64,000 nt of DNA from a phage. The DNA lies in the sequence record PZ379176.1. One strand, given 5' to 3'. Under the pieces are notes generated by a model that made no database searches, had not been told where the DNA came from, and saw only the letters and a program-made list of their open reading frames with translations. Of this stretch, positions 4,580 to 10,302 are shown in pieces. The first letter of the stretch is position 1. Each line of letters starts with the position of its first letter. A program made the translations under genes and the position numbers.

Positions 4580-4608
4580 TTGACACCGAAAACAGCCTGA
4601 TATATAGT
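4580..4608 (+). promoter_or_regulatory. sigma70-like promoter (TTGACA-N17-TATAGT)
   Basis: Near-consensus -35 and -10 hexamers with 17-nt spacer, inside a 2-kb ORF-poor region. Confidence 0.6.
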
Positions 4609-5212
4609 GAGCATAGTCAGCGATGACTTAAAAAATCCCGCTCTTTAAAAATATGATTTGTCTTACGGGTGGCGGCGACGTCATTACTATAAGGCGCTCA
4701 GTTAATCGGTAGAATTGATTCCTGATTCATACGTGACGCAGGCGGACAATAAGCAATATCAATAAGCCTTATTTGTTCGATACTTTCAAAAGATTAATGC
4801 TTGAAAGCGCACTAGATTCCCTGAAAGACAAATCAGACTTATCATCTTGCCCTTTCGCATAGATTCACGCGAGATAAGGGAAAGGAATTAAAAGAAGATG
4901 ATAAAAAGAGTTGCAAACGTGGTTAAAGTAGTCCATACTAACCACAAGTTAGCAAAACATCGCTAACTAGTTCCCAAATCAACGTATCGCGGGAAAGGTG
5001 GCACATAGTGCAGCGATTAGTTCAGGTGTAGGCGGCCTGTTAATGAATCAGTAAGCCTTCAATGTGACAGTGATTAGCAGACACTTTAAAAGGCTAAACG
5101 CTCTTTAACAATATGAGTCATAAGTTAAGCCTCACCGCTTAATCTTCAATCAAATAAAGCTGATTGATATATCCTCCCAATAGCGGGAACGACGAAAAAG
5201 ATTAAAAAGCGG

Positions 5213-5241
5213 TTGACAGCGAAAACAACATGATTCATAAT
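5213..5241 (+). promoter_or_regulatory. sigma70-like promoter (TTGACA-N17-CATAAT)
   Basis: Near-consensus hexamers; spacer shares CGAAAAC with the 4580 promoter. Confidence 0.6.
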
Positions 5242-6162: not shown

Positions 6163-7062
6163 ATGGCTAAAATCTTTACTCTGGTTAACGAATCTGGTTT
6201 TAATGCTCTGGCTAACAATATCCGTAGCAATAATGCAGCGATCAAACAAGATGTTTCTAACTTCCTGTTAGGTCATTTGCAGCACTTTCGTAGCAACGGT
6301 AAGAAGTTAGATGTATTGCAGGCGGCGGTTGACTTCCTGTTAACCGAACGTTTCCGCGATATGGATGTTATTGCCACCGCGATCACTTTCTTAACTCCTA
6401 TCAAGTTTAACACTGATGCGTCAAATGGTCGTAAGAAGTGGATTAATCTGGAAGGTGAAGCGAAAGCTAAAGAAGATGCGAAAGAAGCGCAAATTAAAGC
6501 CAAAATGGAGCAAAACCGTGCCCGCTGGTCAAACGCTTTCGAAAACTTTGCATTAGGTCGTGCAATTGAAGTGGATAATCCTAACTTCTACAAAGGTTGC
6601 AATGACAACGTGGCGGCACACCTGCAAATTCCGGCGAAAAACAAGGAAGATTTTAATCAGGATATTTACGCTTTGGTTGAACGCTTGAATGCAATCCGTA
6701 TTGAAGCCAAATTACTGGCTGATGAGCGCAACGGCGCAACCAGCGATAACACTATCGCCCTGAGTGAAGAAGTTGGGAAGGTTAAAAAGTCCTTTGATTC
6801 ACTCATCAAGAAAATCACGGCCTCGACGGTAGCGATCTCGGATGATTATCTGATGAACGCATCAAGCAAGGAATTAGAATCACTCGATTCATACGCTGAT
6901 GAAATGGAAAAGACTGTTGCAGCTATGCAGGAGAAGTTAGAAAGTCTGCGCGGTCGTATCTCTTCAACGGTTGCTACCCGTACCGAACAAGCGGCGAAAG
7001 CAGAAGAGGAAGAAGTATTGCGTAAAGCGGCTGAAATTATGGCGGCACGTCAGGCGGCATAA
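6163..7062 (+). CDS. hypothetical protein, coiled-coil rich (about 300 aa)
   Basis: ORF track frame; ATG at 6163 with SD AAAGGTGA. Confidence 0.6.
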   Translation: MAKIFTLVNESGFNALANNIRSNNAAIKQDVSNFLLGHLQHFRSNGKKLDVLQAAVDFLLTERFRDMDVIATAITFLTPIKFNTDASNGRKKWINLEGEAKAKEDAKEAQIKAKMEQNRARWSNAFENFALGRAIEVDNPNFYKGCNDNVAAHLQIPAKNKEDFNQDIYALVERLNAIRIEAKLLADERNGATSDNTIALSEEVGKVKKSFDSLIKKITASTVAISDDYLMNASSKELESLDSYADEMEKTVAAMQEKLESLRGRISSTVATRTEQAAKAEEEEVLRKAAEIMAARQAA

Positions 7063-7085
7063 GTAAGACAATTTGAATAAACATA

Positions 7086-7119
7086 AGGCGCTATCTTAAC
7101 GGGTAGCGCCTTTTCTTTT
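7086..7119 (+). terminator. rho-independent terminator
   Basis: Stem AGGCGCTA/TAGCGCCT followed by TTTCTTTT. Confidence 0.6.
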
Positions 7120-7167
7120 ATCAGTGCATTGATTCAGTGCATTAATCAAAGAATTTAATCAAAGGTG

Positions 7168-7392
7168 ATGATCATGTTAATTACGCATACCACGATTTAT
7201 AGGAATCTTGTCAACGGTCAACATTACCGCCTATCTAAAAAGTATGGCGTTGAATGTAAATGTGTTATTACCGGTGAATGGTATCCGTCACCAATGAAGA
7301 TTGAAACGCTGGAACGTGAAGCGATCAGTTATATTATCACGCAAGAAACAACGTTAGGCCGTATCTTAAGAAAGCTGGGATTGAGAAAATGA
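7168..7392 (+). CDS. hypothetical small protein
   Basis: ORF track; SD AAAGGTGA. Confidence 0.4.
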   Translation: MIMLITHTTIYRNLVNGQHYRLSKKYGVECKCVITGEWYPSPMKIETLEREAISYIITQETTLGRILRKLGLRK

Positions 7393-7613
7393 TATTCAGT
7401 AGTAATTTTGGCAAGTGTCCTATTTGTGAGAAACATCGCAGCACGGGAAACCATCGCAAATGTAGTAAGATATTACAGCGCCAACGTGATAACAAACATT
7501 GGGATACTGTACACACTAACCAGCGTAAAGAAGAAGTTAGGAAAATGGCTGTTAAAGCGTCATTTGCTCAATCAACCCGTATTGAACACATTCAAAGGTA
7601 TCAAGCATCATGA
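7389..7613 (+). CDS. hypothetical small protein with Cys/His cluster
   Basis: ORF track; CPICEKH...C; ATGA overlap with previous gene. Confidence 0.4.
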   Translation: MIFSSNFGKCPICEKHRSTGNHRKCSKILQRQRDNKHWDTVHTNQRKEEVRKMAVKASFAQSTRIEHIQRYQAS

Positions 7614-7819
7614 TCACTAACATTTCAGAGTTTAAGAAAGCTCCCTCTCGTCTGTTAGGCCGTCGTGTAGTGTATCTTTATAGCAATAAAGGTAAATGTA
7701 CAACCGGACGAATTACAACGGTGAGTAGTGCCAATAAGAAACTACTAAAATTATGTGTAACTATGGATGACGGTACAATCCTTCTACGTAGTTGGAAATC
7801 GTTTAGTTTACTTGATTAA
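7610..7819 (+). CDS. hypothetical small protein
   Basis: ORF track; start overlaps previous stop. Confidence 0.4.
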   Translation: MITNISEFKKAPSRLLGRRVVYLYSNKGKCTTGRITTVSSANKKLLKLCVTMDDGTILLRSWKSFSLLD

Positions 7820-7888
7820 GTTATTTGTTCAAGCCTATCGACTTGATGGGCTTGCCCGATATAACTTATCACTGGAAGGAATAAGATT

Positions 7889-8332
7889 GTGGCTAAATCT
7901 AAAATCAGCATGAAGGGCGGGCGTTGTTTTGCTATCTCTGAACTAGAGAAAGAGAAACCGAAGGCAACTAATCACGTTAGTAAGCGTAGTTTAAAACGCC
8001 GTGCTGCAAAGGCTGAGGCTGAATCCCATGTTCCTTCCAGTGTGGCAAAACGTGTAGGCCATCGTGTCCATCGTGCTGATGCGTTGTTGTTAGCTGATCA
8101 TAAACGTTCTTTGTTACAGAGCGGGGGCGCTAAAACAGAAGAAGAGAAGAAGTTAGAAATCTTCTGTAATGGTCGCACCCGTGGTAAACAGAAGTTTAAG
8201 GGTAGCACGAAAGACCCTCAGGCATTCCCTAAGACAAGCCAGTGTGCACCTGATGTTTTCTACGCAGATAGTAAACACAAGTGGGGCGTTGAGAAATACA
8301 TTGACCCCATCAAAGAGGCAAGGGTTAAGTAG
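7889..8332 (+). CDS. hypothetical basic protein (147 aa)
   Basis: ORF track; Lys/Arg-rich; GTG start. Confidence 0.45.
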   Translation: MAKSKISMKGGRCFAISELEKEKPKATNHVSKRSLKRRAAKAEAESHVPSSVAKRVGHRVHRADALLLADHKRSLLQSGGAKTEEEKKLEIFCNGRTRGKQKFKGSTKDPQAFPKTSQCAPDVFYADSKHKWGVEKYIDPIKEARVK

Positions 8333-8413
8333 TAGGAATATAGCCCCCTCTTTTAGTACTATGACGCTCTTTCTGTAGCGTCGTGCCCTCTCCCCATTTG
8401 AAGCTTCTGCATA

Positions 8414-8435
8414 GCCGCCTTTGGGCGGCTTTTTG
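8414..8435 (+). terminator. rho-independent terminator
   Basis: GCCGCC-TTTG-GGCGGC then TTTTT. Confidence 0.6.
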
Positions 8436-8442
8436 CGTTACC

Positions 8443-8466
8443 GCCTCCTTAATTGGAGGCTTTTTT
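8443..8466 (+). terminator. rho-independent terminator (second of tandem pair)
   Basis: GCCTCC-ttaatt-GGAGGC then TTTTTT. Confidence 0.6.
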
Positions 8467-8492
8467 GTATCTATTATATAGGAAACCATGAA

Positions 8493-9305
8493 ATGAAAGC
8501 ATTTGCATTGTCAGCTATTCTAGTTTTATCTGCCATTAGTGCCCCATCCTTTGCTCATTCTGACAAATGCTCACACTCTAAACAGTGTGAAGTCCAGCAG
8601 GGGCCGAAAGGTGATAAAGGAGAACAGGGTATTCAAGGCGAACAAGGTCCGAAAGGTGACAAGGGTGATCGCGGAGAGCAGGGCTTAAAAGGTGATACTG
8701 GATCGGCTGGCATCAATGGTAAAGATGGCATCAATGGTAAAGATGGCATTGATGGTAAAGATGGCATTGATGGTAAAGATGGCATCAATGGTAAAGATGG
8801 CATCAATGGTAAAGATGGCATTGATGGTAAAGATGGCATTGATGGTAAAGATGGCGCTCAAGGTGAAAAAGGTGATTCTGGTGCAGATGGTAAGAAAGGC
8901 GAAACTGGCCTAACTGGTGCAGCAGGTTTGAATGGCGTTGACGGATTAAATGGCAAAAATGGTAAAGATGCAGATATGTCTGCCGTTAATGCTAACGCCA
9001 AATCTATCAAAGCTCTGGAACAATCCACCAACAAACGTTTTGCTTCTTTGCAAAAACAAGTAGACCGTAACCGTGATCATGCCTCTGCTGGTATTTCTGG
9101 CGTGGCTGCAATGGCTAACATCCCGCAAGTAAGTCAAGGATCTGCTTTCTCTGTTGGTGCTGGGGTAGGTGCTTACGATGGTGAATCTGCTCTTGCTATT
9201 GGTGTTAGTGCTCGTTTCAATGAAAACGTAGTAACTAAAGCATCAGTGGCAATGACTTCAGAGAGTGACGCTGTTCTGGGCGCTGGTGTAAGTTACGAGT
9301 GGTAA
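8493..9305 (+). CDS. secreted collagen-like repeat protein with YadA-like C-terminal anchor
   Basis: Signal-like N-terminus MKAFALSAILVLSAISAPSFA; long Gly-X-Y tract (GPKGDKGEQG...GINGKDGIDGKDG...); C-terminus ends GAGVSYEW, resembling trimeric-autotransporter anchors. Confidence 0.7.
   Translation: MKAFALSAILVLSAISAPSFAHSDKCSHSKQCEVQQGPKGDKGEQGIQGEQGPKGDKGDRGEQGLKGDTGSAGINGKDGINGKDGIDGKDGIDGKDGINGKDGINGKDGIDGKDGIDGKDGAQGEKGDSGADGKKGETGLTGAAGLNGVDGLNGKNGKDADMSAVNANAKSIKALEQSTNKRFASLQKQVDRNRDHASAGISGVAAMANIPQVSQGSAFSVGAGVGAYDGESALAIGVSARFNENVVTKASVAMTSESDAVLGAGVSYEW
8709..8852 (+). repeat. eight tandem 18-nt repeats (GGCAT[C/T][A/G]ATGGTAAAGAT) inside the collagen-like gene
   Basis: Direct reading: units alternate ATCAAT and ATTGAT in pairs, encoding GINGKD/GIDGKD. 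Confidence 0.9.
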
Positions 9306-9311
9306 GATAGT

Positions 9312-9338
9312 GCCTCTCCCGAAAGGGAGGGGTGTTTC
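9312..9338 (+). terminator. rho-independent terminator
   Basis: CCTCTCCC-gaaa-GGGAGGGG then TGTTTCT. Confidence 0.55.
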
Positions 9339-9415
9339 TATAAGCATCTTTTCGAGGGTGTTTATTGAAACAACAAAACAGGAGGTAGCAAGTTCTGATA
9401 ACAACGGCACAGCTA

Positions 9416-9805
9416 ATGTTGACATTGACTATTTATTATGAGGCAGGGAATCAGCCAACCGCATGTAAGGCTTTAGTTGCGGATACCGTGATAAATAGAA
9501 TGGCCCAACGAAAACTGACCGCTGAACAGGTGATAAGACAAAAGAACCAGTTTGAGTGGATTCCGGTACTATTAAAACAGGAGAAACCTTATAAACGTTA
9601 TGTAAAGCTGATTCGTGATAAAAATCCGATGACTAAGCAAGCCATTGGAGAAAGCGAGCGACTTGCTAAACGTGCCCTTAAGAAGAATTATGTTCCGCTG
9701 TACAGTGGGACTTACTTTCAGAGTAAGAGCGAAGGGGTGCCAAAATGGTATGCCAATCCTATGTATTGTGGTGATTTAGTGTTCGATAATAGCTCTAGGG
9801 AATAA
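9416..9805 (+). CDS. SleB/CwlJ-like cell-wall hydrolase domain protein
   Basis: Motif IYYEAGNQ...ACKALVADTVINRM...QFEW, as in the SleB-type hydrolase family; start uncertain. Confidence 0.5.
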   Translation: MLTLTIYYEAGNQPTACKALVADTVINRMAQRKLTAEQVIRQKNQFEWIPVLLKQEKPYKRYVKLIRDKNPMTKQAIGESERLAKRALKKNYVPLYSGTYFQSKSEGVPKWYANPMYCGDLVFDNSSRE

Positions 9806-10005
9806 TCACTAGTGCCAGATTTGACAAACTAAATTCCTTTATAAACCAACCACTTAGTAAATTTATTGAAAAAGATGGCAGTATTCTGGGACTATGGGTA
9901 ATGCTCTGTATATAGACCCTTTGAAAATTTCTTAGAAAATAAGTTTACTAAATATAACTTACTTAAATAATATTACTTTTAATCTCTGATAAAAGGGTAA
10001 ATAAT

Positions 10006-10302
10006 ATGACTTTAGAAGTATATAAATTCCTTTTTGTAAGCTGTTTAACTATCAGCGTTCTAGGATTTATTATTCTCAGAAACAAAGCAGCAAGCTGGGA
10101 GAGAATGTATAAATCCCTAGTTCGAGTGGATGAGATGTATAATGAGAAAGTTAAAGTAACACTTAACGATCTTATTATGCAAGTAGAGGACAGAAACAAG
10201 CGTCTTCAGAACCTCAACCACGAAGTGTTACGCCTTGCTCGTGCTAATGAAGACTTGCGAGTGGCTATTGCTAAACAGCAGGAGATTAACAATGAAGCAT
10301 GA
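10006..10302 (+). CDS. membrane-anchored coiled-coil protein
   Basis: N-terminal TM helix then heptad-like region. Confidence 0.5.
   Translation: MTLEVYKFLFVSCLTISVLGFIILRNKAASWERMYKSLVRVDEMYNEKVKVTLNDLIMQVEDRNKRLQNLNHEVLRLARANEDLRVAIAKQQEINNEA

Follow-up and report, generated by a model that had tools for sequence, protein, structure and literature searches.

The closest described relative of the gene studied here is phi32_119 of phage phiEco32, deposited in 2008 as an 'agglutinating adhesin' (ABY52920, EU330206). A 2013 paper named phiEco32 as one of the phages that carry a yadA homologue (PMC3728262); in the closest relatives the gene is annotated 'YadA-like protein', and the label derived from RefSeq and PHROG is 'tail protein'. 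The identity of the gene is already known from annotation. Here, we analysed a stretch of 64,000 nucleotides from the phage sequence record PZ379176.1 (hereafter the window), which belongs to a Kuravirus, a phiEco32-like virulent podovirus, and we focused on its homologue of phi32_119 at 8493-9305. The two genes lie in the same slot, and their last 450 nt differ at 3 nt and at no residue. In contrast, the N-terminal module (signal peptide, first part of the collagen tract and second upstream hairpin) has been replaced, the tip reads HSDKCSHSKQCEVQQ in the window and KSGNNGNGNGGCGVGQSTNGCGIGDWF in phiEco32, and eight hexapeptide units in the window stand against two in phiEco32. All of our sequence-level tests agree in supporting, as the predicted product, an exported collagen-like trimer on a YadA-type β-barrel anchor.

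Trimeric autotransporter adhesins (TAAs) like YadA, Hia and AtaA share with this protein a signal peptide, a coiled-coil helix leading into an anchor of four strands per chain, and a terminal aromatic residue. Unlike them, the window protein has no detected head or neck, its stalk would be a collagen triple helix and not a coiled coil, it is only 270 aa long, and it is encoded by a virulent phage. The immunoglobulin-binding Eib proteins of E. coli prophages, reportedly described by Sandt and Hill in 2000 and 2001 and followed by an EibD structure from Leo and colleagues in 2011, are said to be phage-borne trimeric autotransporters for the E. coli surface, as is predicted for the window protein. 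However, they are reportedly lysogenic-conversion genes of temperate lambdoid prophages and have heads and coiled-coil stalks, whereas the carrier of the window gene is obligately lytic and the gene has no DNA relative among the E. coli genomes searched below. The Scl1 and Scl2 proteins of Streptococcus and Lcl of Legionella resemble the window protein in their charge-stabilised Gly-X-Y tracts, their repeat-number polymorphism and their surface display, the last being a prediction for the window protein; its matches to the NCBIfam families of the Scl/Lcl type are partial (E ~1e-20) and far below the family cut-offs. Scl and Lcl depend on LPXTG/sortase anchoring or type II secretion, as against a predicted outer-membrane barrel here, and the trimerisation nucleus would be the C-terminal coiled coil and barrel instead of an N-terminal V domain.

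Annotated phage relatives include the N4-like Ithacavirus (Schitoviridae) phages FSL SP-058, FSL SP-076 and TR2, as well as the jumbo phages GAP32, fHe-Yen9-04 and others. The homologues of these five named phages have the same architecture, a similar anchor (45-65% identity) and a two-Cys tip. As in the window, the Ithacavirus and jumbo-phage genes are located outside structural modules, but they encode larger N-terminal domains (~50-120 aa) and other collagen lengths, and some lie near tellurite-resistance-type genes. Further, the lambda morons lom and bor are said to be hairpin-flanked extra genes with presence/absence polymorphism and an outer-membrane product, all of which applies here, the membrane location by prediction. 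The window gene differs from them in having no promoter of its own, no composition shift and no lysogeny, and in that its first hairpin belongs to the backbone.

Results and discussion

The product is predicted to be a collagen-stalk autotransporter

The open reading frame (ORF) runs on the + strand from the ATG at 8493 to the stop codon at 9303-9305 and encodes 270 aa (Table 1). A rule-based test recognised the N-terminus as a signal peptide, with MK, a 15-aa hydrophobic core (maximum Kyte-Doolittle hydropathy of 2.6 over 11 aa) and a cleavage motif between SFA and HS. The tip that follows carries Cys26 and Cys32, which probably form a small disulfide loop; closely spaced cysteines are tolerated by autotransporter passengers. 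This loop reads SHSKQ in the window allele, and TIFKP, LIFKP or SIFKP in metagenomic alleles; the tip of the type B alleles described below reads CGVGQSTNGC. The rest of the passenger is an unbroken run of 41 Gly-X-Y triplets that matched the Pfam Collagen family above threshold (E=6e-22). The tract is rich in K, D, E, N and Q with only two Pro, and charged or polar X and Y residues take the place of hydroxyproline (X positions: K10, I9, D5, E5; Y positions: D14, K7, N7, Q5). As a triple helix, 41 triplets would be ~35 nm long.

The C-terminal part matched YadA_anchor (PF03895) from aa 211 to 270 with E=2.2e-19, covering profile positions 1-60 of 60. An AlphaFold2 model was computed for the monomer from a 24-sequence alignment; the predicted local distance difference test score (pLDDT) was below 50 for aa 1-158, as expected for a collagen monomer, and only the helix and the anchor were used. 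The model places four β-strands at 219-228, 231-241, 246-255 and 261-268 with pLDDT 80-90, and the chain ends at Trp270. In a sequence search of the PDB, collagens matched aa 36-160, the YadA anchor 2LME matched aa 181-270 (E=2.7e-8) and the Hia anchor matched aa 167-270, so that the helix segment aligns with YadA 2LME and Hia 2GR7. Foldseek against the PDB returned TAA anchors (Hia, AtaA, YadA) in all top five places, with template modelling (TM) scores of 0.66-0.85 and a root-mean-square deviation of 1.7-2.8 Å in four of the five. The terminal ...VSYEW supplies the aromatic last residue that serves as the β-signal for the β-barrel assembly machinery (BAM). The marks of a TAA were thus found together, namely a Sec signal peptide by rule, a helix joined to a four-strand anchor, and a terminal Trp. 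The 41 triplets and the 46-residue helix are both trimer-forming motifs, and they predict a trimer. An earlier reading of this DNA (the sequence-only reading) had named a signal peptide, a long Gly-X-Y tract and a ...GAGVSYEW end resembling a TAA anchor, and had suggested family searches for YadA_anchor and collagen together with signal-peptide and β-barrel prediction; both families were matched, the ...GAGVSYEW end falls within the full-length anchor match, and the rule-based test and the AlphaFold2 strands agree with the rest. As a whole, the locus is in our judgement probably best explained as a minimal trimeric autotransporter (type Vc) whose entire passenger would be a collagen triple helix.

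These features bear on the competing label, under which the product would be a collagen-like tail fibre or tail protein of the virion. In RefSeq, phi32_119 and the proteins homologous to it go by 'tail protein' or 'tail fibers protein', and the families that PHROG matched best are labelled 'tail protein' and 'adhesin' (phrog_26246, E=4e-90; phrog_17426). Phage fibres often contain collagen tracts, and cyanophage virions have yielded a YadA-domain protein (PMC9146016). However, a cleavable signal peptide and a complete β-barrel anchor ending in Trp are export features, whereas virions assemble in the cytoplasm. The gene sits in an early cluster, among small early genes and adjoining a Hydrolase_2 gene, far from the structural genes, which argues against a virion part. 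The same follows from the viability of SU10, ES17 and Bas91 without the gene; SU10, for which the virion structure is solved (PMC11990801), does not have it, and neither do most kuraviruses. The homologue in FSL SP-076 (L017:3728-4690) lies beside genes for RNA polymerase subunits and dUTPase, 1.5 kb from terB, and such non-tail neighbours (PMC3728262) likewise speak against a virion role. A virion protein would be expected to lack an export signal, to be encoded in a structural module and to be kept in all relatives, and the opposite was found on each point. We therefore regard a virion component as very improbable.

The 'tail' label seems to stem from the collagen repeats and from over-extended starts that hide the signal peptide. 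The deposited coding sequences of phi32_119 (L001:3135-3932) and Bas90_0117 (L005:1181-2098) are extended upstream through the hairpins. The conserved start is ATGAAAGCA behind an AGGAA Shine-Dalgarno (SD) sequence, which gives a phiEco32 product of 226 aa. Because it masks the signal peptide, the over-extension may have contributed to the 'tail protein' annotation.

The repeat array varies in length while the rest of the gene is constrained

The array consists of eight 18-nt units in two variants, four of GGCATCAATGGTAAAGAT (GINGKD) and four of GGCATTGATGGTAAAGAT (GIDGKD). Their order, N N D D N N D D, amounts to a perfect 72-nt tandem duplication, and Tandem Repeats Finder (TRF) reported 8.2 copies with 95% matches. 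The sequence-only reading was right about eight 18-nt tandem units at 8709-8852, but it called all eight perfect, which holds only for the 72-nt duplication.

The number of hexapeptide units differs widely among the relatives: none in KM01, two in phiEco32 and EK5, five in phiEc_1, six in Ec3-ASingh and EcP-vB, eight in the window and Bas90, and at least seven in MN03, whose record is cut inside the array. The differences occur on identical or near-identical 3′ halves. The last 450 nt are the same in the window, EcP-vB and ShigP1, which have eight units, six units and an unresolved number (ShigP1), respectively, and differ in unit order too; they are also the same in EK5, phiEc_1 and MN03, with two, five and at least seven units. 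The ShigP1 array differs from that of the window and holds 95 Ns. Length variation is thus real and fast, as had been suspected from the repeats, and the tract, with 0, 2, 5, 6 or 8 units on identical or near-identical 3′ halves, is anything but invariant. Moreover, the array always changes in frame, indicating length tuning and not on/off switching.

The repeat appears to defeat short-read assembly of these phages, and deposited unit numbers may be unreliable. Three records (MN03, PGN6866 and FS2B) stop either at the 3′ portion of the gene or no more than ~250 nt away from it, and in MN03 the break was seen directly inside the 18-nt array.

Outside the array, ten alleles differ by 0-12 nt and 0-5 aa over the last 450 nt, and the reading frame is open in all carriers that could be called (eight ORFs are complete, the MN03 record is truncated and that of ShigP1 is interrupted by Ns). 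The non-repeat part of the gene is thus under constraint.

The gene occupies a polymorphic slot

The slot is bordered by the homologues of phi32_120 and phi32_117, and a comparison of 12 kuraviruses showed it in four states. An adhesin with the type A N-terminus is present in the window, EcP-vB and ShigP1, the flanking genes of ShigP1 being 100% identical to those of the window. An adhesin with the type B N-terminus occurs in phiEco32, EK5, phiEc_1, Ec3-ASingh, Bas90, KM01 and MN03. SGF2 (L004:3242-3547) and 172-1 (L012) carry a helix-turn-helix (HTH) gene of the HTH_37/XRE-like kind, which encodes 101-108 aa (Pfam, E=2e-17). The slot is empty in Bas91, by direct comparison, and in SU10 and ES17, where only the flanks match. 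The leader with its SD and the downstream hairpin with the GAAA loop are common to the adhesin and HTH cargos, and this hairpin is deleted in the empty-slot phages. Behind the HTH gene, ~20 nt of the adhesin 3′ end survive (GGTGTAAGTTAC...), and in 172-1 the HTH ORF runs into this remnant (...GDGVSYK and stop). The fossil indicates that in this lineage the adhesin came first and was later replaced. Across a phage collection, 15 of the 78 Kuravirus records that contain the upstream gene also contain the anchor; the adhesin is an accessory gene, well conserved where present and lost or replaced in most relatives.

Two small annotated ORFs lie at the edges of the cargo. Bas91_0115 (L003:3122-3256, 'tail protein', 44 aa) spans the deletion scar of the empty slot, where hairpin 2 is joined to AAAACAGGAGG, and it is very likely spurious. 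The 43-aa ORF phi32_118, at 9310-9441 in the window, overlaps the downstream hairpin and looks equally doubtful.

The sequence-only reading had called the locus a moron-like cassette. Measured against the moron definition of Juhala and Hendrix, an extra gene does stand between conserved neighbours with presence and absence among relatives, and the slot alternates between adhesin, HTH gene and nothing. However, the gene was not found to have its own promoter with a terminator, its first hairpin is backbone, and the carrier is virulent and not a temperate phage with expression in the lysogen. The GC content is 0.44-0.46 over the gene and 0.38-0.47 in the flanks, and a foreign base composition was rejected. 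The lysogen-like conversion proposed in the same reading is inapplicable because the phage is virulent. We also dropped a link to persistent or carrier-state infection; the Gordonclarkvirinae had no persistent members in one study.

That only 15 of 78 records keep the gene, that the HTH phages hold a fossil showing its replacement, and that chromosomal collagen and YadA_anchor relatives exist in bacteria could mean that it was acquired once from a bacterial TAA, brings no present benefit and is now being lost as a decaying passenger. Against this stand the open frame of the callable carriers, the 0-5 aa against 0-12 nt differences in the last 150 residues, and array changes that are in frame throughout. 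In addition, several virulent phage lineages that are unrelated to one another have kept this architecture, and 5,426 complete E. coli genomes contained no related DNA from which the gene could recently have come. Decay of a useless passenger is therefore improbable.

The downstream neighbour (9416-9805, + strand), the phi32_117 homologue of 129 aa, matches Hydrolase_2 (PF07486, E=1.7e-7), a cell-wall hydrolase family of the SleB/CwlJ type. It lies in the early region, apart from the lysis genes, and is kept at ~98.5-100% nucleotide identity in every kuravirus compared, with or without the adhesin. Given this neighbour, and since overproduction of TAAs stresses the envelope, the barrel or fibre might weaken the outer membrane together with the hydrolase homologue, as an accessory to lysis. 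However, the hydrolase gene is retained whether or not the adhesin is there, the pore of a TAA barrel is plugged by its own helices, and SU10 does without the adhesin, so lysis is independent of it. A lysis accessory is scarcely credible on these grounds.

Expression would depend on read-through from early promoters

Two terminator-like hairpins precede the gene. The 71-nt region that holds them folds at -30.3 kcal/mol (z = -5.1), and none of 200 shuffles folds as well. Each of the 12 kuraviruses compared has hairpin 1, the empty-slot and HTH-carrying phages among them; retained in every slot state, this hairpin is the intrinsic-terminator-like end of the upstream block (phi32_123-120 homologues) and part of the backbone, not of the cargo. 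The sequence of hairpin 2 is specific to type A, whereas the type B, HTH and empty-slot phages have another hairpin there (CCCCGGCUACGGCUGGGG and U6). In those phages, ~90 extra nt separate the two hairpins (phiEco32 region L001:3110-3235) and form a long hairpin of their own (~18 bp); for the region as a whole, the folding energy is -52.4 kcal/mol (z = -4.4). The type A allele of the window has replaced this stretch, and the gap between the hairpins is at 8436-8442. The ~90-nt element might be an RNase III site or a small RNA; Rfam gave no match at E<=1 in 7000-10200 of the window. The downstream hairpin folds at -18.3 kcal/mol (z = -3.7) and is real, but it is followed by GGUGUUUCU and not by a clean U tract, which makes it a weaker terminator candidate. 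Terminators had been said to bracket the gene; this stands for the tandem pair upstream and is less secure downstream, where the U tract is weak.

No sigma-70-like promoter was found in 7800-9900, hence none between the hairpins and the ATG. The best manual sigma-70 candidate, TTGGAG-16-TATATA, was rejected as it fails the -10 rules and would start transcription past the SD. The phage sigma factor gp36 was considered next to it. The element 5′ of the SD reads TATTATATA in the window, with two mismatches to tAATGTAtA, and TACTGTATA in phiEco32, with one. Transcription from gp36-type elements starts 6-8 nt downstream (PMC8948821), which would remove the SD, and we rejected the element as a working promoter. 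No gp36-type site with at most one mismatch lies near the adhesin gene, and the window as a whole has 20 such sites against 20.5 expected by chance.

The placement of the SD implies an mRNA start 5′ of it and thus read-through of the hairpins. Without a promoter of its own, the gene would be best explained as expressed by read-through from early promoters. In published layouts, this gene cluster is headed by the early promoters (PMC4281155, PMC8948821), and two near-consensus sigma-70 sites in the window (Table 1) likely supply the read-through transcripts. A strong terminator-like hairpin (12 bp and a U tract) also stands at 7085-7112 on the + strand, after the phi32_124 homologue, so transcripts from these sites would have to pass three hairpins to reach the adhesin gene. 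Early expression is suggested solely by the position of the gene in the early gene cluster (PMC4281155, PMC8948821).

A mini-ORF of two codons (ATG AAA TGA) at 8488-8496 overlaps the true start codon (ATGAAATGAAAGC) and is present in both allele types. Its ATG is just 3 nt past the SD, and for this reason it is probably not translated.

Table 1. Features of the adhesin locus and its surroundings in the window (positions in nt; aa numbering of the 270-aa product)
Feature	Position	Strand	Basis or remark
Coding sequence, predicted collagen-stalk trimeric autotransporter, allele of phiEco32 phi32_119	8493..9305	+	
Shine-Dalgarno AGGAA, 8 nt 5′ of ATG	8480..8484	+	Direct reading of the sequence
Predicted Sec-type signal peptide, aa 1-21 (MKAFALSAILVLSAISAPSFA / HS)	8493..8555	+	Rule-based test
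Distal tip, aa 22-36 (HSDKCSHSKQCEVQQ), with Cys26 and Cys32	8556..8600	+	Varies most within the protein
Collagen-like tract, aa 37-159, 41 Gly-X-Y triplets without interruption	8601..8969	+	Pfam and PDB collagen matches
18-nt array (GINGKD/GIDGKD)	8709..8852	+	Length-variable part of the protein; TRF, unit counts in relatives
Long α-helix, aa 163-208 (46 residues), putative coiled-coil neck into and through the barrel pore	8979..9116	+	AlphaFold2, pLDDT ~70-90
Predicted YadA-like membrane anchor, aa 211-270	9123..9302	+	PF03895, Foldseek
Hairpin 1 (stem-loop 8413-8430) and U run to 8435	8413..8435	+	Pattern scan, fold
Hairpin 2 (stem-loop 8443-8460), GCCUCC-UUAAUU-GGAGGC, U6 at 8461-8466	8443..8466	+	Pattern scan, fold
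Downstream hairpin, GAAA loop	9313..9330	+	Right border of the exchangeable cargo
Promoter-like sites, near-consensus sigma-70: 4580-4608 TTGACA-17-TATAGT; 5213-5241 TTGACA-17-CATAAT	4580..5241	+	

The family is shared by unrelated phages and has bacterial relatives

A search of 5.8 billion proteins returned 2243 homologues. Among the best 120 of these, 119 carry both Collagen and YadA_anchor, 119 end in W, 114 have a signal-peptide-like start, and 102 have exactly two Cys near the tip, spaced 5, 6 or 8 aa apart; their triplet counts, phage proteins included, range from 12 to 58. Many homologues lie on contigs of ~70-73 kb. On one metagenomic contig of 71.7 kb (L015:8001-9161 and neighbours), the homologue is near TerC, TelA, TerD and vWA-TerF genes; co-occurrence with tellurite-resistance-type genes was remarked on earlier for SP-058/076 (PMC3728262).

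Collagen-stalk autotransporters exist in bacteria too, as is indicated by a chromosomal relative in an enterobacterial assembly (L013:8001-9260). This protein of 419 aa carries Collagen and YadA_anchor, lacks a Cys pair and has a larger domain at its N-terminus, and its gene sits between the arginine deiminase (arc) operon and pyrBI/argR/valS. In E. coli, blastn found no DNA relative in the 5,426 complete genomes, and an E. coli chromosome or prophage was rejected as the source. Plasmids gave only distant anchors such as Saa, with at most 57% identity over the anchor.

A proposed route of assembly and a tentative role in adhesion

We propose a route to the cell surface whose steps follow the established biogenesis of type Vc autotransporters; sequence and fold give the parts only. 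Host RNA polymerase would start at early promoters and read through the leaky tandem hairpins at 8413-8466, the SD-led mRNA would be translated, and the signal peptide would route the protein via Sec. Three four-strand C-terminal units would form a 12-strand outer-membrane barrel with the help of BAM, and the three helices (aa 163-208) would thread the barrel pore as a coiled coil. This coiled coil, being C-terminal, lends itself to seeding the C-to-N zippering of collagen, and outside the cell it would nucleate the 41 Gly-X-Y triplets into a rod of ~35 nm, distally tipped by the Cys26-Cys32 loop. Each unit gained or lost in the in-frame array, through slippage or unequal recombination, would alter the rod by ~1.7 nm, and rod length may be tuned to reach beyond the O-antigen layer. 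The adhesin would then hold the infected cell to neighbouring cells or surfaces, so that the burst is released beside new hosts.

That the protein acts as an adhesin of the infected cell is the function we tentatively favour, although it falls somewhat short of probable. Adhesion had been suggested in the sequence-only reading as well, next to exclusion. The distal tip is the most variable and module-swapped part, as expected of a binding surface, and length variation fits projection past an O-antigen of varied length. The two upstream terminators argue against the dense expression that a coat would need. Scl and Lcl are collagen-like bacterial surface proteins with repeat polymorphism and roles in adhesion and aggregation, which favours the same function for a repeat-polymorphic protein of this kind. 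Kuraviruses require hosts that bear O-antigen (PMC11990801).

The main rival is a surface shield or superinfection exclusion. The 35-nm rods would coat the infected cell and the lysis debris and mask O-antigen or outer-membrane receptors, which would shut out rival phages and save progeny from being lost to debris; the receptor block by Llp of T5 follows the same logic. The gene lies in the early region, its product is predicted to be exported and anchored in the outer membrane, and members of the family turn up in virulent phages that are not related to one another (Kuravirus, N4-like Ithacavirus, jumbo phages). The rod would be long enough to overtop the O-antigen, the receptor of these phages (PMC11990801). 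However, a steric coat needs dense expression from a gene that stands behind two hairpins with no promoter of its own, and a passive coat leaves the hypervariable, module-swapped tip unexplained. Most kuraviruses are without the gene. Moreover, no PADLOC defence model matched the protein, and membership in a defence system was rejected. A shield is in our view possible but rather unlikely.

Several points weigh against an exported trimeric adhesin. Trimer formation, export and surface display are predictions drawn from homology alone, and the arguments that choose adhesion over shielding are indirect. Pfam recognised only Collagen and YadA_anchor in the protein, with no TAA head, neck or other adhesive or passenger domain, and the tip is only 15 aa long; a head is typical of the TAA family but not obligatory. 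With tandem terminators directly upstream, very little protein might be made. The gene is missing from 63 of the 78 Kuravirus records, and any benefit would thus be conditional. Finally, we found in the literature annotation-level remarks on this phage protein family and no experiment.

Implications for phages and their hosts

To the known annotation, this analysis adds a passenger predicted to consist of collagen only, a quantified repeat polymorphism, two tip modules, the replacement fossil in the HTH phages, an architecture that recurs across unrelated virulent phages, and a likely mis-annotation as tail protein. The last is of practical weight, as 'tail protein' and 'tail fiber' labels with over-extended starts mislead analyses of host range and receptor-binding proteins, and the repeat appears to break or gap short-read assemblies of these therapeutic-candidate phages. 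The locus is well suited to testing: BASEL has both a carrier (Bas90) and a non-carrier (Bas91), alleles range from 0 to 8 units, and two tip types exist.

The finding raises the question of why obligately lytic phages of several unrelated lineages retain a predicted exported outer-membrane fibre. As a speculative answer, collagen-stalk autotransporters may be widespread 'virocell surface' genes that are exchanged among unrelated virulent enterobacterial phages (Kuravirus, Ithacavirus, jumbo phages). During the short lytic cycle, they would remodel the exterior of the infected cell and either glue it to fresh hosts or block rivals, with a fast repeat setting fibre length against the O-antigen and a swappable Cys-loop tip setting specificity. 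If this is true, lytic phages would manipulate the cell-to-cell contact of their hosts, a trait so far tied to lysogenic conversion.

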